IMG/VR virus record: IMGVR_UViG_3300028591_000072
Location: 96,001 to 160,000 of that record
DNA: 64,000 nt
Source: a virus
Taxonomy: Duplodnaviria; Caudoviricetes
Strand: one strand, 5' to 3'
Positions 363-59,247 of this stretch are shown piece by piece. The translations under genes were made by a program, and so were the position numbers. Every line of letters starts with the position of its first letter. Positions within the stretch are counted from its first letter, which is position 1. The notes below the pieces were generated by a model. That model was not told the DNA's origin. It saw nothing but the letters and a program-made list of their open reading frames with translations, and did no database searches.

Positions 363-1298
363 ATGGGAAAAAGAAAAACAACGGAAGAATTTATAGAAGA
401 AGCCAGAAAAATTCATGGTGAAAAATTTGATTATTCAAAAGTTAATTATGTTAATAACAAAACAAAAGTTTGTATAATTTACAATAACATTGAATATTTT
501 ATTACACCAAAAGACCATTTAAAAGGTGAAGGATGTCCTTATTTGTCAAATAAACTAAGAAATAGCAAAAACACAAAAACGACTTCTGAATTTATAGAAA
601 AATCAATAAAAATACACGGAAATAAATATGATTATTCCGAATCTATATATGTTAATCATTTAACGCCATTAAAAATTATTTGCAAAAAGCACGGAAAATT
701 CACACAAAAACCATCTGACCATTTAAGTGGGTGTGGATGCCCAATTTGTTGTGGAAGTTCCAAACTAACGACAAGTGAGTTTATTGAAAGAGCAAAGATA
801 GTACATGAAAATAAAAATTTTGATTATTCTAAAGTTGAATATGTGAACAGTAACACAAAGGTTTGTATAATATGCCCTGAGCATGGCGAATTTTGGCAAA
901 CTCCACATGATTTTATTAGGGGTGTTATTGGATGTAAAAAATGCAACGAAAAAAAGTTAGAAAAAGATATAGAATTTGAATTGCAAAATAATGATATTAA
1001 ATATGAAAGAGAAAAACATTTTAAATGGCTTGGAAAGAAAAGTTTAGATTTTTATTTGCCAGATTATAATATTGCTATCGAATGCCAAGGAGTACAGCAT
1101 TTTGAGCCTGTTGAATTTTTTGGTGGAGAAGAATCCTTTAAAAAACAGATTAAAAATGATTTTGAAAAATACAAGATTTGTGAAACACATAATATTAAAA
1201 TAATATATTACTCATCCATTATAAAAGAGCAAAAAGAATATTTTCGGCCATTAATAAATAATAAAAACGAAATTATTGAACTAATAAAAAAAATATGA
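363..1298 (+). CDS. Putative homing endonuclease: DUF723-like zinc repeats plus Vsr/DUF559-like nuclease
   Basis: Three YDYSKV.Y.N...KVCIIC..HG.F.Q.P..H..G.GC repeats and a C-terminal DFYLPDYNIAIECQGVQH motif. Confidence 0.8.
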   Translation: MGKRKTTEEFIEEARKIHGEKFDYSKVNYVNNKTKVCIIYNNIEYFITPKDHLKGEGCPYLSNKLRNSKNTKTTSEFIEKSIKIHGNKYDYSESIYVNHLTPLKIICKKHGKFTQKPSDHLSGCGCPICCGSSKLTTSEFIERAKIVHENKNFDYSKVEYVNSNTKVCIICPEHGEFWQTPHDFIRGVIGCKKCNEKKLEKDIEFELQNNDIKYEREKHFKWLGKKSLDFYLPDYNIAIECQGVQHFEPVEFFGGEESFKKQIKNDFEKYKICETHNIKIIYYSSIIKEQKEYFRPLINNKNEIIELIKKI

Positions 1299-2458: not shown

Positions 2459-3385
2459 ATGAAATTAGATTTTAATGACATAAAATATTTGGTTAACGAA
2501 TGTGTTAAGAAAATCATATCTGAAAGAATTAGCGATAAAACATATCATTTTACGTCTTTTTCTTCTTGCATAAATATTCTTAAAAACAATGAGTTTAAAT
2601 TGACATTATCTTCAAATTCATCAGATGCGTATGACAATAAACGCTTATTCTATTTATCAACACAACGAGGTAGAAGCAAAGACATTGGATATGCAGGACA
2701 TTTGGGAAGTTGTATACGAATTGAAATAAATGGCAACGAAATATCACAAAAATATAATGGTAAGCCTATAGATTATTGGGGAACGATGGGAAAACAAGCA
2801 TATTACAAGCCAGAAAACGATTCAACATTTGGAAAAGGATTTACAAAGTCAAAAAAAACGCACCATAATTTCGAAATGGAAGACAGGATTTTCTCATATA
2901 CTCCAACAATTGAAAACGCATCTAAATATATTTCAAGAATTGATGTTTATTTGAGCGGACAAAGAAAAGATTTAGCCGAGAAAGAAAAAGATGATGCAAT
3001 TACAATTTTAGTACTATCAAAAAGAAATTCAATACCAGTTTTTGTATACACTGACATCAAAGATTTTAATTTTATGACAGATAATACCATAAATTCAGAA
3101 CTTGAGCAACTTTATAAAAATGATTTTCAAAGCAAGACAGAAGTTGGATTCGAAGATTATGATAGAATTAAAATATGGAGAGAAATGAAAAAAAAAGGAA
3201 CATTTGTTAATATCTTAGAACAATTGATGAATGTTTATACATTAGGTAAAATATACACCAAAAATAATGAAATATATAAAACGGTTTCATCACTATTTAA
3301 ACAATTTGGATTAGAAAAATATAAAAATGATTTAATTAAGGGAACTATATACCTGATGGCACAAAGTCAGTCTGATAAAGGCTGA
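2459..3385 (+). CDS. Putative ADP-ribosyltransferase-fold virion protein with shared leader; C-terminus cut by IS insertion
   Basis: Leader IKYLVNECVKKIISE; YHFTS...YLSTQR...EMEDRI pattern. The last ~14 codons are read from the IS inverted repeat starting at 3340. Confidence 0.5.
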   Translation: MKLDFNDIKYLVNECVKKIISERISDKTYHFTSFSSCINILKNNEFKLTLSSNSSDAYDNKRLFYLSTQRGRSKDIGYAGHLGSCIRIEINGNEISQKYNGKPIDYWGTMGKQAYYKPENDSTFGKGFTKSKKTHHNFEMEDRIFSYTPTIENASKYISRIDVYLSGQRKDLAEKEKDDAITILVLSKRNSIPVFVYTDIKDFNFMTDNTINSELEQLYKNDFQSKTEVGFEDYDRIKIWREMKKKGTFVNILEQLMNVYTLGKIYTKNNEIYKTVSSLFKQFGLEKYKNDLIKGTIYLMAQSQSDKG

Positions 3386-3392
3386 CTTTTTT
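3363..3392. terminator. Bidirectional intrinsic terminator (AAAGTCAG family)
   Basis: AAAGTCAGTC-TGATAAA-GGCTGACTTTTTT; the same stem occurs at 28381 and 36323. Confidence 0.75.
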
Positions 3393-3393
3393 G

Positions 3394-3777
3394 CTACGAA
3401 GCAAACTTTATCCCATTACCTTGTGAGAAATTGTAAAATGCTTCAATAAAGTAATCATAATCTTCTTCGGAAATGTTATTGGTTTCTTTAAGCATATTCA
3501 GCACCTCTACATCACCTATTTTTGTTACATCACCTATTGTTATAAATCCTCCAATTGCTGCAAAAGACAAAACCACAGACATCTTTTTTCTGTATGAAAT
3601 CGTATTATCTGTAATAAAGTCTGTAATATTCCACCATTTAGATGGCTTGCTGTTATTATCTTTTGCAATGATTATAGCATTTTTTGCAAAATGTTCCATC
3701 ACTTCAATTAAAAGGTTGCTTTCGCAATAAGTCGTTAGTTCATGTGCTGAACTTGGTGTAATGTATAGTATATCCAT
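3394..3777 (-). CDS. Hypothetical passenger protein
   Basis: ORF of 127 aa from the ATG at 3777. The track start at 3795 lies inside a TATCTTTGCA promoter box. Confidence 0.65.
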   Translation of the reverse strand: MDILYITPSSAHELTTYCESNLLIEVMEHFAKNAIIIAKDNNSKPSKWWNITDFITDNTISYRKKMSVVLSFAAIGGFITIGDVTKIGDVEVLNMLKETNNISEEDYDYFIEAFYNFSQGNGIKFAS

Positions 3778-3790
3778 ATCAACTTTTTCT

Positions 3791-3800
3791 TGCAAAGATA
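3791..3800 (-). promoter_or_regulatory. Bacteroidota-type -7 promoter box TATCTTTGCA
   Basis: Matches TAnnTTTG, 13 nt upstream of the ATG at 3777, back-to-back with the late motif at 3800-3808. Confidence 0.55.
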
Positions 3801-3825
3801 CTATTTATTTGAAAAATAGATATAA

Positions 3826-4110
3826 ATGAAGAAAGAATTTGAAGATATTATCAAGGAAAGTGTTAGAAGCGTTCTTTACGAAATGGATATTGTTCCTACA
3901 AACAAACATGGAGAAACAAATCTTGTAAAAAAGCAATCAATTAATGCATGGATAATGATATATCGCTTAATGGATAATATAAAAGTTGTAATGGATAATC
4001 AATATAAGTCAAAGAACGGTAACATTACAAACAAAGATGTAGATGGAATTATAGACTATTTATACAACAGTCTTCAAAATGTAACAAAGAACACGATTGG
4101 AGAAAAATAA
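3826..4110 (+). CDS. Hypothetical protein with shared leader (IS passenger)
   Basis: MKKEFEDIIKESVRSVLYE; late motif at 3800-3808. Confidence 0.75.
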   Translation: MKKEFEDIIKESVRSVLYEMDIVPTNKHGETNLVKKQSINAWIMIYRLMDNIKVVMDNQYKSKNGNITNKDVDGIIDYLYNSLQNVTKNTIGEK

Positions 4111-4135
4111 CCAAGAAATAAAAGAGAATAGAAAT

Positions 4136-4441
4136 ATGAACAAGAAACAAAGAATTAGAATAAACGAGAACCAATTAAGGCAAATCGTTAGCGAATCCGT
4201 GAAAAGAATTTTAAGAGAAAACGATGATTTCACACCACATGGATATATGACGAAATCAAATCTTGGAGGAACCGAAGTACAAATTAGCAATGATGGTTCT
4301 GCGGCAAGATTTAGAAACAATTACGGAACGCCAGACAAACCGACTGATTGGCTCGAAATTGAATTTGACGAAGAAGGCGTTGCTTATGTTACTTTACCAA
4401 ATGGTAGCCAAGAAAGGTTAGACAATTATATGAGATATTAA
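4136..4441 (+). CDS. Hypothetical protein with shared leader (IS passenger)
   Basis: MNKKQRIRINENQLRQIVSESVKRILRE. Start placed at 4136 by similarity to the N-terminus of 27838. Confidence 0.75.
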   Translation: MNKKQRIRINENQLRQIVSESVKRILRENDDFTPHGYMTKSNLGGTEVQISNDGSAARFRNNYGTPDKPTDWLEIEFDEEGVAYVTLPNGSQERLDNYMRY

Positions 4442-5373
4442 GCAGTACACTTAACAACTTTCACATCCTCGAATGTAACGACATTCAAGGCGTGTTCCAT
4501 AAGGGCAGCGAACCTTTCGCCGCCCTTCTTTTTTCTATTGTTGTAGCGAAAAACCGCCTCGTCAATGTAACGCTGGATATAGTAGCGTGAAACAAAGTGG
4601 TATGTGCCATAAACCATACGCTTGAATTGTCCCCAAAAGCCCTCAATCGTGTTGGTGTACTTGCGTCCCACGGCAAACTCCTTTTGGCTGTGGTTGACAA
4701 TCTCCCTGACATACCCGTTGTCATTCAGGTTGCAGTAAATGTTGGTTTCGTCAGTATAAACCACCGAACCAACCTTAATATGGCTCTTGATAATAGGCAT
4801 AAGCGTTGCGCTCCTTGTATCCTCAACCTTGATGGCAAACACATTGCCTTCCCTTTGTGCCATACCGAATACGGGTGTCTTTGTCTTGGTGCTTCTGCCT
4901 TGCGTACCCTCAACCTTCTTGCTTTCGTGCTTGTTGGTTTCCCTACCACCAACATAGGTTTCGTCAATCTCAACCTCGTCCTCAAGGATTGGTGCTGATT
5001 GGGTAAAGGTGGTGCGAATCTTGTGGAGCATAAACCAAGCGGTTTTTTGTGTCACACCCAAGTCAATGGCTGCTTGCTTGGATGAAACGCCCTTGGAGTG
5101 GGTTGACATAAGGAAAATGGCTCCAAACCACTTGTATAGGGGTAATTTGGTGTCTTGGAAGATGGTTTCCTGAAGGATTGAGAATGATGAGCCACACTCA
5201 CGGCACTTGAAGCGTCCGTCACCACGGCGATATGGGTGCATGCCACCGCAATACGGGCAAGCAACAAGTCCGTCAGGGTAGATTTGTTCCTCAATGAACT
5301 TTAGGCAGGTGGCTTTGTCCCGGAAATGGCGGAAGATTTGAGGAAGGGAGTTGAAATGGGCAAGGTTAATCAT
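4438..5373 (-). CDS. IS1595-family (ISXO2-like) DDE transposase
   Basis: Zinc ribbon CPYC...CREC, VEIDETYVGG, VYTDE, TNTIEGFW and RYIDE..FRYNNR; visibly more GC-rich than the phage backbone. Confidence 0.93.
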   Translation of the reverse strand: MINLAHFNSLPQIFRHFRDKATCLKFIEEQIYPDGLVACPYCGGMHPYRRGDGRFKCRECGSSFSILQETIFQDTKLPLYKWFGAIFLMSTHSKGVSSKQAAIDLGVTQKTAWFMLHKIRTTFTQSAPILEDEVEIDETYVGGRETNKHESKKVEGTQGRSTKTKTPVFGMAQREGNVFAIKVEDTRSATLMPIIKSHIKVGSVVYTDETNIYCNLNDNGYVREIVNHSQKEFAVGRKYTNTIEGFWGQFKRMVYGTYHFVSRYYIQRYIDEAVFRYNNRKKKGGERFAALMEHALNVVTFEDVKVVKCTA

Positions 5374-5947: not shown

Positions 5948-8900
5948 ATGGCAAATAACAATCAAACTATATTTCAAAGATTAACTGATGTATTTAGGGG
6001 TTCAAATAGCAATTCAGTTCCTAAAGCAGTACAAACGTCAAAAAGTTTTGATGAAAGGAACGAAGTGCTTTTTTCGACAAATGACAGGGCTGAATATGAA
6101 AGAAAATTAGAAACATTTAAACAGCAAAAATATTTAGCATATCAATGGAAAAGGGCAGGCGCTGACAATTCCATGGAAAGTTTGGCCGGATATAATGCCG
6201 TTAAATTAATGTATCGTGACGTTGACCTTATGGATGGGACTTGTGAAATTGGAAGTGCTCTTGATATTATATCAGAAGAGGCTTGTTTGGATGGTGATAC
6301 ACAAATAAAATTATTAAACGGAAAAGTTTTTACAATCAAAGAATTGTATAATATGCGTTGTAAAGATTTTTGGGTTTATTCTGTTGACGAAAATGGAATT
6401 TGTATGCCATCGCACGTTGATAGTGTTATTTATAAGGGTAAAAAAAACATTATAGAAATAACGCTTGACGATGATACTGTGATAAAAATTACGCCAGACC
6501 ATAAATTAATGTTGTCAAATTGTGAATGGAAAGAGGCATCTGATTTGGTTGAAGGTGATTCTTTAATGTCAATATATGACTCAAAGGATAATTTAGGATA
6601 TGAACAAATCATATCTTCTACCGAGTATAAAAAAAGGCCAACACATCGTGTTGTTGCTGAAAACGTTTTAATTGATGAAAAAACGATTTTATTGGAAAAA
6701 AACACAAATAACCAAAAAATAGTTATTCATCATAACACATTTAATAAATCGAACAATGACCCATCTGCATTGACATATATGTATTGGGATGAACATCAAA
6801 AATTACACACAGATTTAAATAAAAAAAGATGGGAAAATAAAGAATGGGCTGATAAGATGAAAAAAATATTTTCAAAAACAGCCAAAAAAACATGGAAAGA
6901 ACAAAGAAATAATTTCATAGAAAAATTTAAAATCGCTCAAAAAAAACGTATTGAAAAAATGAGCGAAGAAGAACGTATTAAATATTTCGGGAGAAAAGGG
7001 AAAAATAATGGTATGTTTGGTATACATAGATATGGCAAAAGCAATCCAAACTATAATAAAACAGTAAGCAGAATAAATAATATAAATGAAAAAGAATACA
7101 TTGATACAATTTTAAATAACGGTGGAAGGAAAGAATTAAAAAATAAGTTTAATTTGACAAAAAATGACGTTATTGAATATAATAGGTATTTATGTAAAAA
7201 ATACAAAATAAATAATATTTTTAATTTAAAATTTAACGATGAAATCTTTACGAAAATTAAAGAAATGATTATAAATAACCCATCTTTAACTCTATCTGAA
7301 ATTTCAAAAAATATTAACATATCAAAAAACACAATTAGCACAATATTAAAAAAACACGATACATCATTTAAAGATATACAAATAAAAAGTGACGTTTGGA
7401 AATATTATAAAGTTGACGAAAAAGAATATATTAATACGATTGCTTATTTAGACACTTATAATTTTAATGAAAAGTTATCAAATAAATTTAATTTAACAAA
7501 AAAACAGATTTCAAGGTTAAATAAAGAAATATTAAAAAAATACGATTTAAAAAGAATTGACCATTTAAAATATGTATTTAACGAAAATTATAAAATTTCA
7601 AAAATTAAGAAACTTATTTCCTATGGAAAAAATAAAAGTGAAATCTTAAAAGAATTATCATTATCAAATTTTCATCTTTTACAAATATGTAAAGAGAACG
7701 GATATAAAGATTATCAAGATTTAAAAAAATCATTATATAACCACAGAATTAAATCAATAAGAAAAATAGAAGAAGAAAGCGATGTATTTGATTTATTGAA
7801 TTCATCAACAAACAATTGTTTTGCAATAAAATGTAACAATGGACATATAATATCGCATAATTGCCCAATTAATTCTGAAGGATTAATGATTAACATATAT
7901 TCAAAGTCAAAAAGAACAAAGTCAATACTAGAAGATTTATTTGTAAACAGGTTACACATTTATACTGAGTTACCAATGATTGCCCGTCACGTAACAAAAT
8001 ACGGAAATACATTTATGCTTTTGAATATAGACAAGTCAAATGGCGTAATGGGGTGGATGATGATGCCTGTTTATGAGGTTGATAGGGAAGAAAACGGATA
8101 TGGGTCAACATACACACAAACAGTTCCACGTCAAACAACTGACATAAAACCTGACGAAATAAGGTTTGTATGGAAAGGGCACAACGGAGATAATGCTTAT
8201 TTCAATTGGCAAGTGGCACATTTTAGATTGCTAAACGATTCGTTTTTCCTACCTTATGGCGTATCAATGCTTCATAAAGCACGTAGAGCGTGGAGAATGT
8301 GGTCAATGATGGAAGATGCAATGCTTATTTGGAGATTAGATAAGGCAATTGAAAGACGTGTTTATAAAGTATATGTTGGCGCAATTGACGATGCTGACGT
8401 TCCTGCATACATAAACGAAATTGCAAATAATTTTAAAAGAACACAAATAATAGACCCAGTTACGGGTCAGGTTGATTTAAGAAAAAACTTTTTAGACGTT
8501 TCAAGCGACTATTTCATTCCTGTAAGAAGAGAGGATGCCCCAAATCCAATTGAAACATTACAGGCGGCAAACAGCCAAGTTCAAATGGAGGACATTGAAT
8601 ACATGCAAAATAAAATTTTTGCAGCAATGAGAGTTCCAAAAACTTTTTTAAATTTCCAAGAAGCGCAAGGTAAAGGCCAGAATCTTTCATTTATGGATGT
8701 CAGGTTTGCAAGAATGATTGTAAGAATACAACAATTTTTGTTAATGGAACTTAACAAAATAGCAATGATACATCTATACTTAATGGGGCTTTCAGATGAA
8801 ATAGGAAACTTTTCATTAACTCTAAACAGCCCATCAACAGTAATAGAAGGACAAGAACTTGAAGATTTACAAAAACGTCTAACAGCAATGCAAACAGCGC

Positions 8901-9637
8901 TTGCTGACCCAGGAACCGGTATTCCAATGATGTCAATGCATAGAGCACTTAAAAAGATAATGAAAATGAGTGACGAAGAAATAAGGGACATGTTCAATGA
9001 AATCCGTTTGGAAAAAGCAATGGCTGCTGAATTAGCTGCAACGCCTAACATAATAAAACATTCAGGAATGTTTGACGTAACAGATAGAATATATGGGGAC
9101 TATGCGGCAATGCATGGAGGTGGAACGCAGCAACAACAAGATAGCGAAAATGACGGAATGGGCGGCGGAGGAGGTGGCCCAATTGGCGGTGGTTTAGGCG
9201 GCGGAGATTTTGACATTGGAGAACCAGGTTCTGATACAGAAGGTGAACTTGGAGGCGAAGAAGGAGAAACCGACATGGAAAGTGCGCCAAATGCCGACAA
9301 CGGAACGCCATTAAATGAGCAAAAATTAAATACGACAAAATCATTTACAAAAAAATATTTTGAAAACATTAACGAAAACAAGTCACAATTAAAAAAAGCG
9401 CCAACTTCTTATTTTGACTTATATATGAATCTAATATCAGAAAGTCAAAAAGAAGAAGATGAAGTTGATGATGTTATTGATTACGACATTAAAAATAAAA
9501 CTTTACAAGAAAACATTAAAAGCATTTGCGATAAAATAGATTCTCTTATTGATGAGGATGAAATAGCACGTGAAAATTTAATAAATGAGGCCATATCCGA
9601 TTTAAATACGATTTCAGGTGAAACACTTAATGAATAA
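5948..9637 (+). CDS. Portal protein (T4 gp20-like) containing an intein
   Basis: Motifs ALDIISEEA, VAHFRL, GVSMLHKARR, MEDAMLIWR...ERRVYKVYVG, DYFIPVR and DIEYMQNKIFAAMRVPK; late motif at 5869-5879. Confidence 0.92.
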   Translation: MANNNQTIFQRLTDVFRGSNSNSVPKAVQTSKSFDERNEVLFSTNDRAEYERKLETFKQQKYLAYQWKRAGADNSMESLAGYNAVKLMYRDVDLMDGTCEIGSALDIISEEACLDGDTQIKLLNGKVFTIKELYNMRCKDFWVYSVDENGICMPSHVDSVIYKGKKNIIEITLDDDTVIKITPDHKLMLSNCEWKEASDLVEGDSLMSIYDSKDNLGYEQIISSTEYKKRPTHRVVAENVLIDEKTILLEKNTNNQKIVIHHNTFNKSNNDPSALTYMYWDEHQKLHTDLNKKRWENKEWADKMKKIFSKTAKKTWKEQRNNFIEKFKIAQKKRIEKMSEEERIKYFGRKGKNNGMFGIHRYGKSNPNYNKTVSRINNINEKEYIDTILNNGGRKELKNKFNLTKNDVIEYNRYLCKKYKINNIFNLKFNDEIFTKIKEMIINNPSLTLSEISKNINISKNTISTILKKHDTSFKDIQIKSDVWKYYKVDEKEYINTIAYLDTYNFNEKLSNKFNLTKKQISRLNKEILKKYDLKRIDHLKYVFNENYKISKIKKLISYGKNKSEILKELSLSNFHLLQICKENGYKDYQDLKKSLYNHRIKSIRKIEEESDVFDLLNSSTNNCFAIKCNNGHIISHNCPINSEGLMINIYSKSKRTKSILEDLFVNRLHIYTELPMIARHVTKYGNTFMLLNIDKSNGVMGWMMMPVYEVDREENGYGSTYTQTVPRQTTDIKPDEIRFVWKGHNGDNAYFNWQVAHFRLLNDSFFLPYGVSMLHKARRAWRMWSMMEDAMLIWRLDKAIERRVYKVYVGAIDDADVPAYINEIANNFKRTQIIDPVTGQVDLRKNFLDVSSDYFIPVRREDAPNPIETLQAANSQVQMEDIEYMQNKIFAAMRVPKTFLNFQEAQGKGQNLSFMDVRFARMIVRIQQFLLMELNKIAMIHLYLMGLSDEIGNFSLTLNSPSTVIEGQELEDLQKRLTAMQTALADPGTGIPMMSMHRALKKIMKMSDEEIRDMFNEIRLEKAMAAELAATPNIIKHSGMFDVTDRIYGDYAAMHGGGTQQQQDSENDGMGGGGGGPIGGGLGGGDFDIGEPGSDTEGELGGEEGETDMESAPNADNGTPLNEQKLNTTKSFTKKYFENINENKSQLKKAPTSYFDLYMNLISESQKEEDEVDDVIDYDIKNKTLQENIKSICDKIDSLIDEDEIARENLINEAISDLNTISGETLNE
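6284..7861 (+). mobile_element. Intein (526 aa) with HNH endonuclease inside the portal gene
   Basis: Begins CLDGDTQI (C113), has block B ITPDH, ends VFDL...ISHN/C (C639). Internal HRVVAE...IHHNTFNKSNNDPSAL HNH motif and NUMOD3-like GKNNGMFG/GKSNPNY. Confidence 0.92.
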
Positions 9638-9666
9638 TAAACTATTTATAAAGAAAAAAGTTTAAA

Positions 9667-10578: not shown

Positions 10579-11303
10579 TGAAAAAGGTTGTTATTACAGA
10601 AGAGCAATTAAGTCATCTTGTCATGCAAGAACAATATGAAATTTTTCTTGCGCAACAGCTCAACGAATCATTGGATTTTAATTCCATAAAGAAAAAGATA
10701 AAAAGGGCGTTATTGGCCGGCGCAACGGCAGCAGCAATACTTGGTGCAGTTGCAAGGATGAACATTAACGACAATCAAAAATTAGAATTGGAACAAATGG
10801 TTGAATTGTTTTCAGACAGCATACAGCATACAGACACAATACATGAACAAAAAGTCCAAGCATGTAAAGAATATATGGAATGGGCAATGAAAAACCAAGG
10901 ATATTCTTTGGAAACAACGCAATTAACGCCAGAAGCGTTGGTTACTGCATGTGAAGAAAATAATTTTAGTTTACCATTTACCATGGCAATAGCAAACTTG
11001 GAATCTTGTTTCGGACAAACTCCAAGGTCAAAAAGGACAAACAGCGTGTTTTCTGTTGGCTCTTATGACAACGGAAAAAACGTATGCACATATTCAACCC
11101 CAGATGAAAGTATTGCTCCTTTTATTAACCTGATAAAGACAGATTATCTTCAAGATGGAGAAAAAACTATTGGGGATTTGCTGAAAACAAACGGGTTTGT
11201 AAACATGAATGGACATAGATATGCTTCGAACAAAAAATATGAGGGTCAGGTACAAAGCATAATGAACAGAATCGTTAAAATGTATCCTATACTTAATTCA
11301 TAA
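10575..11303 (+). CDS. Glucosaminidase/lysozyme-like protein with shared leader
   Basis: AIANLESCFG...NSVFSV...RYASNKKY (GH73-like); leader MKKVVITEEQLSHLVMQE...LNES. Confidence 0.7.
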   Translation: MMKKVVITEEQLSHLVMQEQYEIFLAQQLNESLDFNSIKKKIKRALLAGATAAAILGAVARMNINDNQKLELEQMVELFSDSIQHTDTIHEQKVQACKEYMEWAMKNQGYSLETTQLTPEALVTACEENNFSLPFTMAIANLESCFGQTPRSKRTNSVFSVGSYDNGKNVCTYSTPDESIAPFINLIKTDYLQDGEKTIGDLLKTNGFVNMNGHRYASNKKYEGQVQSIMNRIVKMYPILNS

Positions 11304-36390: not shown

Positions 36391-36966
36391 ATGAGTAAAA
36401 AACAAATTATTAAAATAAACGAAAGTCAATTAAAACAAGTTGTCACTGAAATTGTGAAAAAAATGTTGAAAGAAGAAACTTCAGACAGTTGGCAACATCA
36501 AGACTTTGATTTTAGAAACGCATGTGAAAGGCTTTGTGGAGAAATTGAATTAGGTAATTACGATAATAGAATAACAGATGCCGAATGGGTTGAAGACATG
36601 GAAAATAAATACGAAAATGATAATAATGGCACAGTTGGTAATATACGTAAGGCTATAAATGATAGATTATCCATAATTGCAAATGATTCATCAGGCAAAA
36701 GCCAGTATATGAGCAATGAAATAGCAAAAAGAATAGTATCTGAATCAATGAAAAATGTATTGAAAGAAGAACAAGAAAATACATATGAAACATTAATAGA
36801 AATTATGAATAAACTTGATATGATTATGCATAGCGGATTTATACCATTTTCTTCGCCAAGTCCTTCATCAACAGAAAAAAAAGTTGCTGATTCAATAAGG
36901 CAAGCAAATGAATTATTAAAACAAGCCGCCATTGGTTGTAAACAATTAGGATATGGGATTAATTAA
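36391..36966 (+). CDS. Protein with two copies of the shared leader
   Basis: MSKKQIIKINESQLKQVVTEIVKKMLKEE and internal IAKRIVSESMKNVLKEE; late motif at 36364-36374. Confidence 0.75.
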   Translation: MSKKQIIKINESQLKQVVTEIVKKMLKEETSDSWQHQDFDFRNACERLCGEIELGNYDNRITDAEWVEDMENKYENDNNGTVGNIRKAINDRLSIIANDSSGKSQYMSNEIAKRIVSESMKNVLKEEQENTYETLIEIMNKLDMIMHSGFIPFSSPSPSSTEKKVADSIRQANELLKQAAIGCKQLGYGIN

Positions 36967-36969
36967 ATA

Positions 36970-37001
36970 AAAAAAAGTCGGTCAAATGGCCGACTTTTTT
37001 T
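36970..37001. terminator. Bidirectional terminator
   Basis: AAAAAAGTCGGTCA-AA-TGGCCGACTTTTTT between convergent genes. Confidence 0.75.
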
Positions 37002-38535
37002 ATGCCTCAGTTTCTACTTCATTTTCAAATTCAAGAGCGTTTATTTTCTCTTCTTTTGCATCCAAAACATCAAGTATTGTACCGATTACAATGTCTTTAT
37101 ATTCTTTTGACATAAATTTGCCTGTCAATGGGTCCACATCAACAATTTCAAGCATTGCTTTTGGCATGTCTCCATCTTCAAAATCCTCAAGTTCTTCAAG
37201 AGTCATATTGAAAACAATTTCAGCAAACCTTGCTTTCACCTTGTCAATTCCAAGTTGTCTTTCACGTTTCATTCTTTCAATGTAATCGTTTTTGATTTGT
37301 TCCCAATCCATTTCACAGTAATCCAAATACGGTGGTTCCCATTCAGGATGCGACATCCAAAACTTAATTTCCCTATCATCAAGAGTCATAAGTTGTTCAT
37401 ATGTGTCTTGGTCTGATTCTTTATTTGGGAAGCCATTGCATAATTCACATTGGTCATATGTGAAATATTGTCTGTCATCAGGATTTGTAATTAAAATTTT
37501 ATTTCTAATTTCAGGCCTGAAGCAAACCAAAAGAGGCGTAATTCTTTTATTGAATTGGTCAATATACTTTTGTACATTATATTCTTCGCCCTCTTTACAC
37601 ATTATATCTTCTTCTGAATCAACAATTTCTCTTGGTACCAATTTGCAATTAAGTATGACCTCATCTTCGATTATAACATCTGAATGATGTCTTTTTACAT
37701 AATCGTTGAATGACAAAGCACGTTCTTTTGGCGCTAACTTTCCATCAACATTGTTTTTTTTCCATTCTTTTTCCAATGCAACCCTGTAATCGGTTTTTTC
37801 TCCAAATAATCCGTCTACTTTATAATAATGGGTTACTTTTTTTGCATCGGTTTGTGATTTTGTCTTACCGATATTGATATAATAAATGGTTTCTCCCATA
37901 CTGACATCAAGATTCTCTCTCAATGCAAGTTCCATCCATGCTTGTCTTGATTTAGGCCTACCTGCTTTTGTTATTGTTTTGCAATCTTCAATATATTCAT
38001 CCAATGATTTTTTAATTTTTCCTTTTGAAGCAATCATTTTCAATGGAATTTGATAATTGTAAATTTTTTCGATATAGTCATAATATGCTTCAATAAAGTC
38101 TTGGCCTTTTTTGCTCAAAAGAAGTCTTATACCTTTTTCCAAGAATTTTGAAATATATTCAGGCATTTTTTTGGATTTAATTGTGTTACCAACCATTTTA
38201 ACATCCTTCGGAAATTCTTCATCAGGGAAATAGTCTGCATAGTTCTTTCTACTAAAGTTAATTGTTGCATCAACTATTTCGTCAATTCCAAGACCCATTT
38301 TATTAACGCAATTAGGACCATAATGAAAATCTTTCATAAACATATCATTAAACTCAGCAACATCAGCTTTAAATCCAGTATATTCTGCACCCGGTTTAGT
38401 TTCTCTTGAAAGACCTAAACTAACATATGGGTTATTTTTTGAATATCTATATTCACTTTTTTCAACATTTAGCCCAAAATACTTTGGTAAAGTAAGGGTC
38501 TTATCTTTTACTTTTATATTATAAAATTTACTCAT
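37000..38535 (-). CDS. Family B DNA polymerase, C-terminal subunit (late palm/thumb)
   Basis: ADVAEFND...GLGIDE...SRKNYA...KMVGNTIKSKK...YNVQKYIDQFNKRI. Confidence 0.8.
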   Translation of the reverse strand: MSKFYNIKVKDKTLTLPKYFGLNVEKSEYRYSKNNPYVSLGLSRETKPGAEYTGFKADVAEFNDMFMKDFHYGPNCVNKMGLGIDEIVDATINFSRKNYADYFPDEEFPKDVKMVGNTIKSKKMPEYISKFLEKGIRLLLSKKGQDFIEAYYDYIEKIYNYQIPLKMIASKGKIKKSLDEYIEDCKTITKAGRPKSRQAWMELALRENLDVSMGETIYYINIGKTKSQTDAKKVTHYYKVDGLFGEKTDYRVALEKEWKKNNVDGKLAPKERALSFNDYVKRHHSDVIIEDEVILNCKLVPREIVDSEEDIMCKEGEEYNVQKYIDQFNKRITPLLVCFRPEIRNKILITNPDDRQYFTYDQCELCNGFPNKESDQDTYEQLMTLDDREIKFWMSHPEWEPPYLDYCEMDWEQIKNDYIERMKRERQLGIDKVKARFAEIVFNMTLEELEDFEDGDMPKAMLEIVDVDPLTGKFMSKEYKDIVIGTILDVLDAKEEKINALEFENEVETEA

Positions 38536-40000
38536 TTTTCCAAATATATTTAATTAATCCGCAATCCCATATTTTTATAAAACCAAGTTTGTCACAAATT
38601 TCTTTTTCTGTTAATGTGGTATCTATTTTATATTTTTTATATAAAATATTTTTTCTAAATCCAAATTTATGAAATCTTTTTTGCTCTCCACCTTTTATGT
38701 ATTTATAATCTGGCGGTGTGTACTTTTCAAAATTAAAACCAATTTTTGTATAAAAATTTCCAATTAAGTCATTAGACCATCTTCTATCAGCAAATGACTT
38801 TACTTCTTTTGGATTATATTTTTTAATAAAATAAGAAAAAAGTTTTCCTCCTACTCCACAACAAATTTTTGATGTATCCGTCGCATATCTGTTTAATTCC
38901 CATTTGTCACCATTCTTTTTTTCTTTTTTAAAAGTCATTACTCCAATTAATTCTCCTTTGTAAAAACATCCTAAATATACACTTGATTTTACTTCTCCTT
39001 GAATGTGAAATGAGTTTAAGAATTGCTTTGATTCACTATATGTTATATCTTTTACATTGCAATTTCTTGCATAAATTTTATCATTTGTTGTTTTGTTTAA
39101 AATATGAGAAATCTTATTTAACACTATTTCTTTTTTATAAAGATATTCATCTTCAAATATTTGAATTAGTCTTATACCATTATTTTTACACATTTCTGTT
39201 TTTTCCAAATGATAATTTTTATTTTTTATACATTTTTCAGAATGCCAAAAAAGTCCATTATATTCAATTCCTATTTTATATTTTGGAATGTAGATATCTA
39301 TTTCAAATGGCTTAATAGATTCTCTATCATTTTTTATAACATTATCTTTTCCTATTAATGAAACAATGTATTCGTAAATTTCATTTTCTGGCTTTGAAAT
39401 TTTAGAAAAGCAAGAAGGACATCCTCCTTGTGGCGATGTTAAATGGTCACACGCAATTTTTTCAAACTCAGTACCACAATCATTACATTTTATTGTAATT
39501 TTAGAATGGCTATTTTCATATTCTTTTTCAATATATGGAAATGAATATTTTTCGCCAAATCTATTTGTTGATTCTTTTATAAAATGTGAAAAATCATTTT
39601 TTCTATATTCTGAAGCATATTTTTTTCCACACAACGGGCATCCTTGTCCTCTTAAATGATTATTAGCTGCTTGTTCAAAATCGCCATGAATTTTACAAGT
39701 AATAATAACTTTACTTCTTTTATTTACATATTTAGTTTTTGAATAATCGTACCTGTTACCGTGAACACTTATTGCTTTTTCAATAAAAGATTCAGAATCT
39801 CTCTTTTTTAACCCAACACATGAAGGGCATCCATTTCCATTAAGATGTGAGTACGGCTTTTGCCAAAACTCGCCATGCTTAGGACATATTATACAGACTT
39901 TTGTTTGTGAATTAACATAATAAGCCTTAGAATAATCATATTTATTTCCGTGTATTAATTTTGCTTTTTCAATAAAAATTTCAGTATTATATTTTTCCAT
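38528..40000 (-). CDS. Putative homing endonuclease (zinc repeats, Vsr-like domain, GNAT-like C-terminus) splitting the DNA polymerase
   Basis: EIDIYIP..KIGIEYNGLFWHS; FLN.FHIQG...WELNRYA...SFADRRWS...IWDCG; own late motif at 40028-40037. Confidence 0.8.
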   Translation of the reverse strand: MEKYNTEIFIEKAKLIHGNKYDYSKAYYVNSQTKVCIICPKHGEFWQKPYSHLNGNGCPSCVGLKKRDSESFIEKAISVHGNRYDYSKTKYVNKRSKVIITCKIHGDFEQAANNHLRGQGCPLCGKKYASEYRKNDFSHFIKESTNRFGEKYSFPYIEKEYENSHSKITIKCNDCGTEFEKIACDHLTSPQGGCPSCFSKISKPENEIYEYIVSLIGKDNVIKNDRESIKPFEIDIYIPKYKIGIEYNGLFWHSEKCIKNKNYHLEKTEMCKNNGIRLIQIFEDEYLYKKEIVLNKISHILNKTTNDKIYARNCNVKDITYSESKQFLNSFHIQGEVKSSVYLGCFYKGELIGVMTFKKEKKNGDKWELNRYATDTSKICCGVGGKLFSYFIKKYNPKEVKSFADRRWSNDLIGNFYTKIGFNFEKYTPPDYKYIKGGEQKRFHKFGFRKNILYKKYKIDTTLTEKEICDKLGFIKIWDCGLIKYIWKNE

Positions 40001-40036
40001 ATGCTTGTTTATAATCCATTTTTATTAATAAATAGT

Positions 40037-42295
40037 TCATACTTCACAAAAATTAATTTCTTTTACGGAAATCCATTCATTATCTATTAATACATCAATA
40101 TTGTCATTTATTTTTTTCATTAATTCATTTATAGGAACAAATAATATATTTTCAGAATTTTTTTCTCTTATGCATAATTTAGTATCTTCACTAAATTTAG
40201 TATTTTCTCCTTCATATCTTGGAACAACATATTCAGTAATAACCGGTTCAATCTTGTTTTCTGGAATTGGCAATTTAAAGTTGAATCCATCTGTATCTCC
40301 AACAATTGGTTGATATCCAAGTTTTGTAAACCAATAAATCATTAGTCTAAGTGCCATTCTGCCTGTACATGTTATTCTTTCAGCACTATCAATTGAACCC
40401 CATGGAAATAAATTAGTTGCAGAGTATGACCCGAACATTGAGTTACCAAAAATTTTCAATGGTAATTGTTTTTTATCATTTGCTGATTCTTCTTGTGCCG
40501 CATTCAACATTTTTCTGTTAAGTTCATCTTTTAACTGTAAATCAGAGCAAGATTCTATTTCTTTTTTATATTTATCTTTTTCTTTGGCAGCTTTTTTCTT
40601 TAATCCTTTATATTTTTCACGTTGAGTTAAAACATGCTCTAAAAAATGAAGCATAGAATTTAACAAATCCTTTTCATTTGTAATACCCCATGTAAGCATG
40701 ATTGATGGATAAAGCGAATTATAGTCAAATTTTGCTACATTATCAACAAATCCTACTTTTAGGAGGCGGGAAAGACCTCCTGTAAATGTTTTTCTTTCAG
40801 AAAATTGAGGAATTGCCAAGTTATTTTCATAACTCCAAGCAAGCATAATTGATTTCCACTGGCCAGCAGTACCCATTGTACAGCACTTGTCAAATGGAAC
40901 AGGAATCATTTTACAAATAAGGAAGTTTGGGGTGTTGTAACGATGTTCAACCATGTCACATTCCCACAAGTCATCAAGCAAATACTTTTGTCCTATATAT
41001 TTTCCGTCAACAACTTTATATCCATCCAAAAGTTTGTTCTTTGTGTAAAGAACAAAAGTTGGGTTGTCTTTTCCTTTTTTCAATAATAGTTCTTCACTTT
41101 CACAAGTATGATTTTCGTCATATATATACCAATCGCCTGTTTCATCGTTAATTGCGAATTTTCTATTTTTATCGTTGTAAATATCTGAAATTTTGTCACC
41201 TGGTATATAAACACGGTCTTCTTTAATCAAATCTGAATATTTACTAACATATTTCAAGTTTGAGAAAAGCATATTTGAATCCAATGCTTGTGCTCTTCTT
41301 ACAGCATGCAATGAATCAGTTACAATAATATTTGGTACGATTGTTTTATTGAATTTTTCAATTTCTCCACCCAATTTAAGAATTGATTCACGTTCATCTT
41401 TTCTAATTGATTCTCCATTGAAAAATTTCTTTGATAGTTCTTCAAGAGAAGTTCCAAGTCTTTCACAAGCGCCAATAATTAACTGCCAGTCAAATGCTTC
41501 TCCATTATGTGCACTAATTACATCGGGCCTAAAAGTATAAATTATTTTTAAGAATGTTATAATACCATTTAATTCTGAAATATTTTTTTCCTCTTCAGTA
41601 TTACCCTCAACATTAATTAATTTTTCAAATTTAATATATTCCCCTTTATATTTTACAGGGCGATTAAATCTTATACCAAACTGTTCTATTCTATCTTTTT
41701 TTGTATTAAGACCTGTTGACTCTAAGTCGAATATAAGTCTTAGAATATCATTATAATCCTCATACCCCTTAAAGAACCTCTTTCCTGTTGAAATCATGAA
41801 TTGCTCTTTGGGAGTAACAGTTAAATACTGTTTTTCTTCTTTTTGTTGGGTTCCACCTTTGTCATCTTTCTTTTTTCTACTCGAAACAGGATTTCCTGCT
41901 TTTTTGAAAAAATCCAAAAAGTCGGAATAACTCATCGGTACTGTTGCATAGAACAAATATGTGTATCCATTCTTAATTTCTTCAACAACTTCACCGTCCG
42001 AATTAGTTACATCAAGTGCCTTAACCCATATTCTATATTTTTTTAGAAGATATCTTACTTTTTGCTTATCGCCATTGCATAGCCTTTTACAAGCATTTTC
42101 AGTTGCCCACAAAAACGGCATAAATGGCTCTTGAGAAACACATTTGTCATCGTTTTCGTTTCTGTAAAATACTGTTATGAAATTATTTTGGTATTTATAG
42201 TCAAGGTTTACAATTCTTTCTTGTTCGTCTCTACCATTTAAAAATGTACTGATTACTTCAGGAGTAATCTCTTTTTTAATAAAATTTTGTCCCAT
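40037..42295 (-). CDS. Family B DNA polymerase, N-terminal subunit (exonuclease plus motifs A-C)
   Basis: Exonuclease motifs DLESTG, HNGEAFDW and YLLDD; polymerase motifs FDYNSLYPSIM, KIFGNSMFG and VGDTDG. Confidence 0.93.
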   Translation of the reverse strand: MGQNFIKKEITPEVISTFLNGRDEQERIVNLDYKYQNNFITVFYRNENDDKCVSQEPFMPFLWATENACKRLCNGDKQKVRYLLKKYRIWVKALDVTNSDGEVVEEIKNGYTYLFYATVPMSYSDFLDFFKKAGNPVSSRKKKDDKGGTQQKEEKQYLTVTPKEQFMISTGKRFFKGYEDYNDILRLIFDLESTGLNTKKDRIEQFGIRFNRPVKYKGEYIKFEKLINVEGNTEEEKNISELNGIITFLKIIYTFRPDVISAHNGEAFDWQLIIGACERLGTSLEELSKKFFNGESIRKDERESILKLGGEIEKFNKTIVPNIIVTDSLHAVRRAQALDSNMLFSNLKYVSKYSDLIKEDRVYIPGDKISDIYNDKNRKFAINDETGDWYIYDENHTCESEELLLKKGKDNPTFVLYTKNKLLDGYKVVDGKYIGQKYLLDDLWECDMVEHRYNTPNFLICKMIPVPFDKCCTMGTAGQWKSIMLAWSYENNLAIPQFSERKTFTGGLSRLLKVGFVDNVAKFDYNSLYPSIMLTWGITNEKDLLNSMLHFLEHVLTQREKYKGLKKKAAKEKDKYKKEIESCSDLQLKDELNRKMLNAAQEESANDKKQLPLKIFGNSMFGSYSATNLFPWGSIDSAERITCTGRMALRLMIYWFTKLGYQPIVGDTDGFNFKLPIPENKIEPVITEYVVPRYEGENTKFSEDTKLCIREKNSENILFVPINELMKKINDNIDVLIDNEWISVKEINFCEV

Positions 42296-42346
42296 TTAAA
42301 ATAGCCAAATCCCTTGGCATGCTTATTCGCTGTTATTTTTATACTA

Positions 42347-42862
42347 TTATAGTACATTAATAATATAGTCCCTTACTCTTCCAAGGACTTTTCCTAAAAG
42401 ATTTTGCCCTTTCCATTTATTTTCATCGTCTATAATTGGGTTATTCCATTCAATACCGCAACCCCATATAAAATCATATTTAGAACCTTCGACAAATGTT
42501 TTATCCAATAAATCTTCTCTTGTAATCAATCGTGCCAAATATTCATTTTGGCAAAATTTTGCAAGTACAACATTATACATTATGTCTTCGCAAACCTCAG
42601 ACCATTGTTCTGAATTAAAATTTTTTACTTGTCTACCTAATTTCTTTGCTTCTTTTGGAGTTTTTGCCTTTAAAATAAGGTCTGCAATCTCTTTATCCTT
42701 AAAATACAAAGCCTTTTCATACATATACGCTTGTTCAGAAGATTTAAACTCAATGCCTAAATATGTTAACTTGCATTCATGAAAGTTTGAGAATTCAGAA
42801 CCCCAAAACGCAATGTGATTGTCATAAACAATAAATCCGTTTCTATCAAAATTTTGTATCAT
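42347..42862 (-). CDS. NADAR (YbiA-like) family protein
   Basis: FSNFH, SSEQAYMYEKA, KKLGRQV, AKF.QN, VEGS.YD.IWGCG and GQNLLGK. Confidence 0.92.
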   Translation of the reverse strand: MIQNFDRNGFIVYDNHIAFWGSEFSNFHECKLTYLGIEFKSSEQAYMYEKALYFKDKEIADLILKAKTPKEAKKLGRQVKNFNSEQWSEVCEDIMYNVVLAKFCQNEYLARLITREDLLDKTFVEGSKYDFIWGCGIEWNNPIIDDENKWKGQNLLGKVLGRVRDYIINVL

Positions 42863-53066: not shown

Positions 53067-53094
53067 AAAGCCAATGGATTTCATTGGCTTTTTT
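53067..53094 (+). terminator. Terminator after the sheath gene
   Basis: AAAGCCAATG-GATTT-CATTGGCTTTTTT. Confidence 0.75.
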
Positions 53095-53161
53095 GTAATT
53101 TTTTTTTCATTAAAAAAAACTTTTTCAGGATTTTCACTATTTATTAAAAAAAAAGTTATAT

Positions 53162-54144
53162 ATGAAAAAAAAATAAATGATTTTATAGAAAAAGCAAACT
53201 TTGTTCATAAAAATAAATATGATTATTCAAAAGTTAAATATAATAATTGTAAAGAAAAAGTATGCATTATATGTTCAGAACATGGTGAATTTTGGCAAAC
53301 GCCAGATGGACATATACAAGGAAGAGGGTGCCCTGTTTGTCGTTATATAAATTCATCAAAAAATAATGCATTAACAAAAGAAAGTTTTATAAAAAAAGCA
53401 AAAAAAATTCATGGTGATAAGTATGACTATTCAAAAGTTGAATATGTTAATAATAGAACGAAAGTTTGTATAATTTGTCACGAAAAAGATGAATTTGGTA
53501 ATGAACATGGTGAATTTTGGCAAGACCCAACAGGACATATTGATAAGAAAGCAGGATGCCCAAGATGTTCAAAAAATCACAAATATACAACTGAAGAATT
53601 TTTAAATAAATTACCACTATGGTTGAAAGAAAAATATGATTTTTCAAAATTTTCATATGTTAGAACACATGACAAATCAATATTAATATGTCGTGAGCAT
53701 GGCGAATTTTTAATATCACCACACAATATAATTAAAGGGGTTGGATGTCCTGGATGTAGTGAAAGTAAACTTGAAAGGCAAATTAGACTTTTTTTAAAAG
53801 AAAAAAATATTGTGTTTATATCGGAATATAAACATAATAAAAATTTTGGAAAACAGGCGATAGATTTTTATTTACCTGATTATAATATTGCAATAGAGTG
53901 TCAAGGAATACAGCATTTTATGCCAACTGATTTTGCCGGAAAAGGAAATGAATGGGCTGAAAATGAATATGAACATATTATAGAACTTGATTTGAATAAA
54001 CAAATATTATGTAAAGAAAATAATATTAGTCTTTTGTATTTTACAACAAATGAAAATAAACAATTAGTGACTGAATCAAGAAATATGCATTTTAATGGTT
54101 ATTATATTTTTACTGATGTTGAAGAATTAAATAACTATTTATGA
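53162..54144 (+). CDS. Putative homing endonuclease whose natural start is out of frame across an A9 run
   Basis: Three zinc repeats plus DFYLPDYNIAIECQGIQH. The ATG at 53162 follows the late motif (53136-53144) but reads ATG AAA AAA AAA TAA. Confidence 0.65.
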
Positions 54145-57582: not shown

Positions 57583-59247
57583 TTAACATTCAGCCTTTTT
57601 CCATATATATCTGATTAAGCCACAGTCGTATATCTTTTCATACCCAAGTTGTTTCGTCATTTCTGATTCTGTCATTGATAACGGTAATCCATATTTATGG
57701 TTTAGCGTTTTTTTTCTAAAGCCAAACTTATGCTGCCTTTTGATTCCATCGGAAGGGTTGAAGTATTTGTAATCCGGCGCTGTATATCCGTCAAATACAA
57801 ATCCAAGCTTTGTATAGACATTTGATTCTTCGTTTATTGTCCATCTTCTGTCTGCAAAGGATTTAATAACGTCAGGACCGTATTCCCTTACGAAATATTT
57901 GAACAGTTTACCACCAACACCTTGGCAAATGTAATTGTAATCACTTGCAAATCTAACCAATTCCCATCTATTGCTTTCTTTTGTTTCTTTTTTGAACGAC
58001 ATTACGGCTATTAGCGAATTGTTAAAAAATGCACCAATGTTAATTGTAGAAGGACCATATCCTTGTATGTGGTATTTGTTAAGGAAACTTTTAGCCAAGC
58101 CATTGTCAATTTCCTTTATTTCACATTTTCTTCCCATTATTTTTGGAAGGTTTTCGCTAACACCAACCAAATGCTTTATCTTGTTTAGTACAATATCCTT
58201 GCTGTTTACGTATTCATCTTCGAAAATCTGGATTAGTTTTACCCCCTTTTCTTTACAAGCATTTAGTTTTTTTAAATGGTTGTTTTTTTCTATGTTTGAA
58301 TGCCAAAAAAGTCCATTATATTCAATCCCAATTTTTAATGACGGAACATAAATATCTATTTCTTTTGGAAGAATTAGTTTTCTTTCGCTTTGTATTACAT
58401 TTTCTTTTCCAATTAATGATGTAACATAATCAAAAATTTCAGATTCTGCTTTTGATATATGATGAACACACTTTGGGCATCCGTTTCCGTCAAGATGCCT
58501 CCATGGAGCTTGCCAAAATTCGCCGTGTTTTGGGCATATTATGCAAACTTTGTTTTTTCCCGTAACATATTCAGTTTTTGAATAATCATATTTGTTATTA
58601 TGTATTTTGTTTGATTTTTCAATGAAATCTTCGGTTGTTAATCTTTTTGACAAACCAAGTTCTTCATGGGAACATTTTTTACAAGATGAACCTTTAAGAT
58701 GCAAATATGGCAATTGATAAAATTCTCCATGTTTAGGGCAAATTATACAAACTTTTGTAAGCATATCAACGTATTCTGTTTTTGAATAGTCATATTTACA
58801 ATTATGCACTTTATTTGCCTCTTGTACAAAAGTTTCCGTTGTGTATTTTTTATTCTTATGGATTGATTTTGAACATATAGGACAACCTTTTCCTTTTAAA
58901 TGGTTATGTGGGTCTTGAAAAAATTCGCCGTGTTCTGGGCATATTATACAAACTTTTGTGTGGCTATTAACATATTCAACTTTTGAGTAGTCATATCTAT
59001 TTCCATGTATTTGTTTTGCTTTTTTAATGAACGAGCTATTAGAACTCTTCATTGTTTTTGAACAGAATGGGCATCCTTGTCCAATTAAATGTTTATCTGG
59101 CCTTTGAGAAAATTTTCCATGTTTTTTACAAATTATTGTTATGTTAGTTTTATTGTTTGTATAAGATACTTTTGAATAGTCATATCTATCTCCATGTATT
59201 TGTTTTGCTTTTTCTATAAAAGTTTTTGTTGTATTTTTTTTACTCAT
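57583..59247 (-). CDS. Putative homing endonuclease (four zinc repeats, Vsr-like domain, GNAT-like C-terminus)
   Basis: Paralog of 38528-40000; IGIEYNGLFWHS and SFADRRW...IYDCG. Confidence 0.8.
   Translation of the reverse strand: MSKKNTTKTFIEKAKQIHGDRYDYSKVSYTNNKTNITIICKKHGKFSQRPDKHLIGQGCPFCSKTMKSSNSSFIKKAKQIHGNRYDYSKVEYVNSHTKVCIICPEHGEFFQDPHNHLKGKGCPICSKSIHKNKKYTTETFVQEANKVHNCKYDYSKTEYVDMLTKVCIICPKHGEFYQLPYLHLKGSSCKKCSHEELGLSKRLTTEDFIEKSNKIHNNKYDYSKTEYVTGKNKVCIICPKHGEFWQAPWRHLDGNGCPKCVHHISKAESEIFDYVTSLIGKENVIQSERKLILPKEIDIYVPSLKIGIEYNGLFWHSNIEKNNHLKKLNACKEKGVKLIQIFEDEYVNSKDIVLNKIKHLVGVSENLPKIMGRKCEIKEIDNGLAKSFLNKYHIQGYGPSTINIGAFFNNSLIAVMSFKKETKESNRWELVRFASDYNYICQGVGGKLFKYFVREYGPDVIKSFADRRWTINEESNVYTKLGFVFDGYTAPDYKYFNPSDGIKRQHKFGFRKKTLNHKYGLPLSMTESEMTKQLGYEKIYDCGLIRYIWKKAEC

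Follow-up and report, generated by a model that had tools for sequence, protein, structure and literature searches.

Cassettes that break essential genes must neutralise the damage that they cause, and this is achieved by RNA splicing, by protein splicing or, in NrdA of Aeh1, by tails of unknown origin. In the 'fractured genes' described by Dassa et al. (2009, PMC2677866), which are found mainly in phages, split inteins flank a free-standing and often Vsr-like endonuclease; an intein-less case (SbcD-like) in the same work carries short inserted ends with no reported similarity to inteins. The tails of Aeh1 NrdA-a and NrdA-b arose by the insertion of mobE, and Crona et al. (2011, PMC3045599) proposed that such tails are a general, non-splicing antidote to gene fragmentation and speculated that they might be the remnants of degenerate inteins. 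Furthermore, a polymerase made as two products, the split gp43 of T4-like Aeromonas phages, is credited to Petrov, Karam and co-workers (cited in PMC2677866). Here we analyzed a window of 64,000 nucleotides (nt) (positions 96,001-160,000 of IMGVR_UViG_3300028591_000072, a 302.6-kb virus record that is about 82% complete), in which a homing-endonuclease cassette separates the two halves of a family B DNA polymerase gene and adds a tail to the end of the first protein and a head to the start of the second. We propose that tail and head are the relic of a split intein that has lost splicing, and that they may still help the polymerase halves to assemble. The literature searched, coverage of which is incomplete, contained neither a described non-splicing split-intein clasp in a phage polymerase nor a paper demonstrating that such a tail is the relic of a degenerate intein.

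Results

A mobile cassette interrupts the polymerase gene just after motif C

Three collinear minus-strand open reading frames (ORFs) span positions 37000-42295 of the window. The first-pass annotation of this DNA had described them and their translations (752, 490 and 511 amino acids) as we found them. Their parts are as follows:

40037-42295, minus strand: polymerase N-gene, 752 amino acids; exonuclease domain and palm up to motif C
40268..42295, minus strand: N-half proper, residues 1-676; exonuclease domain and palm, ending just past motif C
40199..40267, minus strand: tail part 1, the linker, N-protein residues 677-699; 23 residues with no counterpart in inteins or in unsplit polymerases
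40040..40198, minus strand: tail part 2, the probable HINT N-lobe relic, N-protein residues 700-752; Lys700 at the place of intein residue 1
40037-40039, minus strand: stop codon of the N-gene, directly after tail part 2
38528-40000, minus strand: intact endonuclease gene, 490 amino acids, between the polymerase halves
37000-38535, minus strand: polymerase C-gene, 511 amino acids; distal part of the polymerase
38458..38535, minus strand: head, the first 26 C-gene residues; basic, with a beta-hairpin-like pattern and a conserved Ser at the junction
37000..38457, minus strand: C-half proper; remaining palm and thumb, stop codon included

The 3′ end of the endonuclease gene shares 8 nt with the start of the C-gene. 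The arrangement had been likened to that of a fractured gene, and the halves do lie on the same strand and flank a free-standing endonuclease. The N-gene matched Pfam DNA_pol_B and DNA_pol_B_exo1 as well as phrog_262, and the C-gene matched phrog_1918 (DNA polymerase). When compared with an unsplit 1163-amino-acid homolog, the N-half was 96% identical to and collinear with residues 1-681, and the C-half was 94% identical to residues 677-1163. No second copy of polymerase B was present in the 302.6-kb genome record (about 82% complete).

Unsplit homologs of 1163 amino acids, with 96-97% identity to the first 90% of the N-half, carry neither the tail nor the head. After motif C these proteins run from Leu-Pro directly into a Tyr-Arg-Tyr segment, and alignment thus confirmed the claim that both segments are inserted: the 76 residues that close the N-gene (40040-40267) and the 26 that open the C-gene (38458-38535). 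A blastn comparison with an unsplit locus (L010, our unsplit DNA reference) placed the inserted DNA at 38449-40267, in place of 15 nt; the earlier coordinates, 38458-40267, were right to within 9 nt. The chance of a 76-codon open extension, calculated from the base composition of this AT-rich DNA, is about 6e-4, and the extension recurs with conserved core residues in 10 lineages.

The substitution rates were analyzed mainly between the window and a second split phage (L011). The two polymerase cores had a synonymous divergence (dS) of 0.74 and 0.56, compared with 0.07 for the tail, 0.06 for the endonuclease and 0.07 for the head; therefore tail, endonuclease and head travelled together, and recently, as one mobile unit. 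In the few hundred bases beside the junction the identity to the unsplit allele fell to 0.77-0.88, from 0.93-1.00 farther out, as expected for co-conversion during homing. The ratio of nonsynonymous (dN) to synonymous divergence, dN/dS, was 0.09 for the N-half, 0.06 for the C-half and 0.04 for the endonuclease, so both polymerase halves are functional and under strong purifying selection. The three-gene layout recurs in other relatives (L001, L004, L007, L008, L009 and L011), and is found also where the polymerase is only 58-68% identical (L001, L003, L004, L007, L008 and L009). The cassette spreads horizontally, and it does so in at least 10 phage lineages.

The tail is probably derived from the N-terminal lobe of an intein

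Many relatives have their polymerase gene split elsewhere, inside motif C, between Gly-Asp and Thr-Asp-Gly, nine residues upstream of the break in the window. The element found there belongs to a genuine intein family: its N-fragment, of about 190 amino acids, starts with Ser and has a Thr-x-x-His motif, its C-fragment, of 34 amino acids, ends with Ser-Asn before a Thr, and its profile matches solved inteins (9hth, and the TFIIB mini-inteins 5o9i and 5o9j). A contiguous version (in P0154) matches Pfam Intein_splicing and LAGLIDADG.

This Ser1 intein provided the reference for the tail. In hhalign comparisons with its N-fragment the tail reached a probability of 91.5% when 6 tails were used and of 94.9% (E 4.4e-8) when 10 were used, with tail positions 24-70 lying on intein positions 1-60 and Lys700 lying on Ser1. 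Hence, Lys does stand where Cys or Ser would be required, as had been noticed in the first-pass annotation, and the N-terminal intein motif recognized there is real, but the inserted segment on that side begins 23 residues earlier, with the conserved linker. Conversely, when the profile of the motif-C intein was run against a six-frame translation of the 302-kb genome, the sole match was the tail (40082-40195, E 0.018).

The predicted structure agreed with this assignment. Folded alone, the tail gave an AlphaFold2 (AF2) model with two beta-hairpins and a short helix, with a predicted local distance difference test (pLDDT) value of 74 overall and of 75-86 for residues 21-76, and with low confidence in the linker. 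The model was compared exhaustively with 48,161 PDB chain representatives by VIA-align, and the seven best matches were all inteins (PolII, NrdJ-1, Npu DnaE twice, Prp8, NeqN/NeqC and VidaL; Z 3.3-3.9), among them NeqN/NeqC 5oxx and Npu DnaE 4lx3. Five of these seven chains align over 47-55 residues, from intein residue -1/1, with a root-mean-square deviation of 2.0-2.4 Å, and about twenty of the top fifty were inteins or hedgehog HINT domains. The structural case rests on the facts that inteins fill all the top ranks and that the register matches that of the sequence alignment. The part of the tail that resembles HINT is the N-lobe only, about 53 residues.

Other searches returned little. Foldseek of the tail model against PDB gave nothing at E <= 0.001, with inteins among the insignificant top rows; Pfam assigned no family to the head or to the tails of this phage and its relatives; and a PDB sequence search with a profile of 6 tails retrieved nothing relevant. 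HMMER with the tail profile against 1.84 billion representatives gave 5 matches, namely three fragments of the same polymerase family, a repeat protein (P0248) and a protein of 3000 amino acids known by its length only (P0245), and no canonical inteins were found among them. A word-indexed search of longer proteins with the tail alignment recovered only members of the query itself. In a feature search of a protein atlas, the best named cluster was viral, with Intein_splicing in 51% of its members, and its score of 0.79 was below the level that counts.

The conservation of the two segments was assessed with 10 tails and 11 heads collected from lineages with this break. The tails are only 25-42% identical, and they keep a constant length, a hydrophobic core, six invariant and four nearly invariant positions. 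Within the linker, Pro at position 8, Val at 15 and Pro at 16 never vary, and Tyr13 is nearly invariant. The 11 heads align and share a hairpin-like pattern. Against the intein C-fragment, hhalign placed the head in the expected register over 20 columns, with P 0.005 and a probability of only 7%. The head had been described as HINT-like strands lacking both TxxH and the terminal His-Asn; it does lack a terminal Asn or Gln, but TxxH normally belongs to the N fragment and not to the C fragment, and the likeness to HINT is weak. For the tail, we consider it very probable that it is of intein ancestry and that splicing has been lost.

The residues needed for splicing are lost

In the 10 tails, the position equivalent to intein residue 1 is K (as here), N, E, D, I, V or A, and the residue at the true insertion boundary varies too (I, S, T, L or V). 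The tail and head of the window do not contain a single His. The tail ends at about intein position 60, some 30 residues short of block B (positions 84-87 in the related intein). None of the 11 heads has a terminal Asn or Gln, and that of the window ends in Glu-Lys. The +1 Ser (Ser27) is present in 10 of the 11 heads, at a position that is variable in unsplit polymerases. The segments therefore have two features of inteins, the in-frame insertion and the +1 Ser, and show neither block A nor block B nor block G. At the level of sequence, the loss of splicing is well supported. Because the three defining features that were tested are not there, the segments do not belong functionally to the intein family; they are derived from it and probably keep its mode of association.

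The loss is specific to the cassette element and is not a trait of this phage group, because canonical inteins persist beside it and in other genes. In L009 (2727-3089), P0244 and P0246, nine extein residues within a mini-gene of 120 amino acids connect the C-fragment of the motif-C intein, which is intact, to the tail of the window type that follows it, so that relatives of the L009 type assemble their polymerase from three genes, with one active and one dead intein element. The window itself has a portal gene (5948-9637, plus strand) whose 1229-amino-acid T4-like product contains a contiguous intein at about residues 122-638 (Pfam Intein_splicing, E 6e-19), with Cys1, Thr-Pro-Asp-His, a terminal His-Asn, a +1 Cys and an HNH/HTH endonuclease region inside. 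A second fractured gene lies outside the window (L013, G000:C1:66000-72000; ORFs 2754-4682, 1558-2709 and 450-1568, minus strand). It encodes a ClpB-like AAA+ ATPase that is broken in the second Walker A motif by an endonuclease gene, and its canonical intein is atypically split, with an N-fragment of about 31 amino acids counted from the Cys and a long C-fragment that carries block B and a terminal His-Asn followed by Thr.

Tail and head carry opposite charges

The net charge was -5 to -15 in all 10 tails and +1 to +6 in all 11 heads. These opposite charges echo the electrostatic capture between split-intein halves and the NrdA tails of Aeh1 (PMC2677866, PMC3045599). When the tail and head were submitted to complex prediction, the pair scored 0.57 and the best of 3 controls scored 0.01, with at least 76% contact agreement between the runs and a partner pLDDT of at least 53. 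Of 80 solved complexes, 58 reached the mark used, as did 2 of 110 mismatched pairs; only 7 of the 80 solved complexes, and both mismatches, reached it at a score of 0.60 or under. The prediction, which came with scores and no interface, is weak support for the association. The first-pass annotation had envisaged a complemented HINT-like fold, and the predicted fold of the tail resembles the N-lobe of such a fold, with the tail-head complex predicted only weakly.

The endonuclease, and other breaks in the polymerase family

The endonuclease consists of treble-clef/DUF723 repeats, a putative Vsr-like (EDxHD-type) nuclease core and a C-terminal domain. It strongly matched phrog_559 (E 2e-121) and phrog_3339 (E 3e-105). 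The Pfam matches to Vsr (E 0.0034) and MTES_1575 (E 0.0014) were both below the curated cut-offs, DUF4379 was also weak, and so was the PDB match to I-Bth0305I (3r3p, E 0.044). Two further phrog_559 endonuclease genes of the window (53074-54144, plus strand, and 57583-59247, minus strand) are seemingly free-standing between genes and split none.

A shorter variant of the cassette is present in L004 (6001-9333; P0123), where a 64-amino-acid tail that has no linker, an endonuclease of 280 amino acids and a head of about 25 amino acids were found, with Gly instead of the junction Ser. In L012 (5369-5510), L005 (10403-10560) and P0191, the ORF of the motif-C-intein C-fragment stops right after Thr-Asp-Gly (a 9-nt or 5-nt insertion with a stop), and a further, headless ORF encodes the remaining polymerase; either the gene has an additional break here or this is a site of recoding. 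In addition, the C-part of the polymerase is interrupted in L005 (about 10746-10990) and L004 (about 9333-9640), between Met-Gly-Leu-Gly-Ile and Asp-Glu-Val-Val, by about 240-300 nt of non-coding DNA, which is likely a small self-splicing intron; the gene of the window is continuous at this place. In P0076 the N-half ends before motif C with a different beta-rich tail, which suggests that this polymerase family was broken independently at a third site.

The record that contains the window also encodes tail sheath, baseplate and T4-like portal genes, and comes from a jumbo phage of at least 302 kb. In a tblastn search of GenBank phages, the N-half found distant polymerases only (21-29% identity) and the C-half had no match; this collection contains no close cultured relative of the phage group.

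Discussion

We propose the following model. A mobile cassette, composed of a 76-codon tail with its stop codon, a free-standing homing-endonuclease gene, and a start codon with a 26-codon head, would have entered the family B DNA polymerase gene just after motif C. This cassette would descend from the split intein of a fractured gene, of which it would have retained ~53 residues from the start of the HINT fold at the end of the N-gene and a short piece of two strands at the start of the C-gene. With the residue-1 nucleophile, the Thr and His of block B and the terminal Asn gone, there would be no protein splicing, and two polypeptides would be made. The acidic tail and the basic head may then associate as the halves of a split intein do, forming a small beta-rich module that would keep the polymerase halves docked at the break, and this docking would make the invasion by the endonuclease cassette tolerable for the phage. 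The idea of a split intein that lost its splicing chemistry and was retained as a clasp had been put forward in the first-pass annotation. Its first part stands, on the hhalign comparison, the predicted fold and the residues missing throughout the family (all except the +1 Ser), and the clasp, that is, a binding of tail to head that aids assembly, is what we infer from the conservation, the charge complementarity and the complex prediction. To the full proposal, a splicing-dead relic of a split intein with a role in assembly, we give a little better than even chances. We hold a further generalization more tentatively, and place it somewhat short of even: the splicing-dead split-HINT pair of about 53 + 26 residues, together with the 23-residue linker, may be a portable heterodimerisation module and the built-in antidote of the endonuclease.

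Several observations weigh against this proposal. Together, tail and head offer about 79 HINT-like residues, which do not suffice for a complete HINT fold, and the conserved 23-residue linker fits no part of an intein. The homology of the head to the C-terminal strands of inteins is suggestive but weak, short of proof, and the Z-scores of 3-4 obtained with the tail model are individually unremarkable. The support from complex prediction is likewise weak. The tail has changed at about twice the rate of the polymerase core (dN 0.46 vs 0.25, window vs L001), and its dN/dS between close relatives is about 0.6, on 11 substitutions only; therefore the constraint on the tail is moderate. In two relatives (L005 and L012) the break seems to lie a few residues farther upstream and to come with no head. 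Finally, the tails of Aeh1 NrdA serve the dimerisation of heterodimers and not the binding of one half to the other (PMC3045599).

Part of these observations would also fit a passive relic, in which decayed intein ends supply no more than a stop and a start codon and the halves join through the native palm/thumb interface. Split family B polymerases that have no inteins are known in T4-like phages, as cited in PMC2677866, and the NrdA halves of Aeh1 bind to each other when they have no tails (PMC3045599); the seemingly headless break near the same place in L005 and L012, the recent tail dN/dS of about 0.6 and the weak complex prediction point in the same direction. However, a stop and a start alone need not keep 76 and 26 codons open in AT-rich DNA, and a passive relic does not readily account for 10 tails that keep their length and their hydrophobic core, with its six invariant columns, at such low identity, for opposite charges kept in all tails and heads, or for a head with zero amino-acid changes where the cores change by 6-11%. 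We regard the passive relic as unlikely, while leaving it appreciable weight. Distinctly less probable is that the tail has another function, such as recruiting a replisome protein, binding the endonuclease of the cassette or regulating the polymerase. The conserved linker with no intein counterpart, an N-lobe that folds alone with moderate confidence, and a tail far larger than the head would all suit such a function, but no result obtained here indicates any such partner, and both the charge complementarity and the tail-head score, which far exceeds those of the controls, favour the head as the binding partner.

The two remaining explanations would restore a continuous polymerase. Non-canonical inteins exist (Ala1, class 3), and the +1 Ser, which 10 of 11 heads share although unsplit polymerases vary there, could be read as a sign that the cassette still encodes an active, atypical split intein that splices via this Ser and an unrecognised nucleophile. 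This is very unlikely, since K, N, E, D, I, V or A stands at the equivalent of position 1, there is neither a His nor a block B (the N fragment ends about 30 residues before it), no terminal Asn or Gln is available for succinimide formation, and the HINT-like part begins 23 residues after the true insertion boundary. We consider least probable of all that the 1.8-kb insert is removed at the RNA level, as a self-splicing intron with an endonuclease ORF, so that a continuous polymerase is translated. Such endonucleases do also reside in group I introns (PMC2677866), and L004 and L005 carry an intron-sized interruption elsewhere in the polymerase gene. Nevertheless, an Rfam scan of 36500-42500 for group I or group II introns, run at E values up to 1, gave only noise and no intron match. 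Moreover, many lineages conserve the tail and head at the protein level and in frame with the exons, and the endonuclease ORF and the start of the C-gene overlap.

If the split-intein relic is indeed a clasp, this would be the first case in which the 'assembly tails' of a fragmented gene are traced to an intein, and the first in which HINT association outlives HINT catalysis. The association of split-intein halves would then be selectable on its own, which would open a route from fragmented genes to permanent multi-subunit enzymes and protein engineering would gain a small heterodimerisation pair of natural origin. The locus links the two kinds of solution to gene breakage, splicing and tails: an intein minus its splicing residues persists here with conserved shape and charge, and in some lineages it adjoins a still-canonical intein in the same gene. 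It is thus a concrete and easily testable system for the speculation of Crona et al. (2011).

The locus has the layout of the fractured genes of Dassa et al. (PMC2677866): a host half with an intein N-piece, an endonuclease ORF on the same strand, and an intein C-piece with the other half. The endonuclease appears to be of the same Vsr-like/DUF723-type family, and the cassette behaves as a mobile unit in both. In those genes, however, the splicing residues are still in place and trans-splicing of the intein halves is expected, whereas the cassette of the window has no residue-1 nucleophile, no block B and no terminal Asn, and only the first ~53 HINT residues of the N-piece are left. The same holds for the comparison with the motif-C Ser1 split intein of the relatives (P0013, P0051, P0126 and others). 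The HINT part of the tail appears homologous to its first ~60 residues, an endonuclease of the same kind lies between its halves, and the two insertion sites are only 9 residues apart; unlike the tail of the window, this intein keeps Ser1, TxxH, the terminal Ser-Asn followed by Thr, and the long N-fragment. The two elements use different sites and can share one gene, as in L009.

As in Nanoarchaeum equitans PolB and cyanobacterial DnaE, a replicative polymerase is encoded here in two genes, and in those systems it is the HINT ends that associate; their fragments, however, splice to a continuous polymerase, and there is no endonuclease between their genes. Like the window enzyme, the split gp43 is a phage family B polymerase with a gene in two parts; it functions in the form of two gene products, and in one case the parts flank a homing endonuclease gene (PMC2677866). 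In what that source cites of it, no intein-like ends are reported, and the break site and the endonuclease family (GIY-YIG) differ. Aeh1 NrdA also is an essential enzyme fragmented by a free-standing homing endonuclease, and its tails too are borne by the element, oppositely charged and absent from unsplit homologs. The polarity of the charges is reversed between the Aeh1 tails and the tail and head of the window, and the function of the tails has been shown biochemically in Aeh1, whereas in the window it is deduced. For the Aeh1 tails no homology to inteins has been shown, whereas the derivation of the window tail from a HINT domain can be demonstrated.

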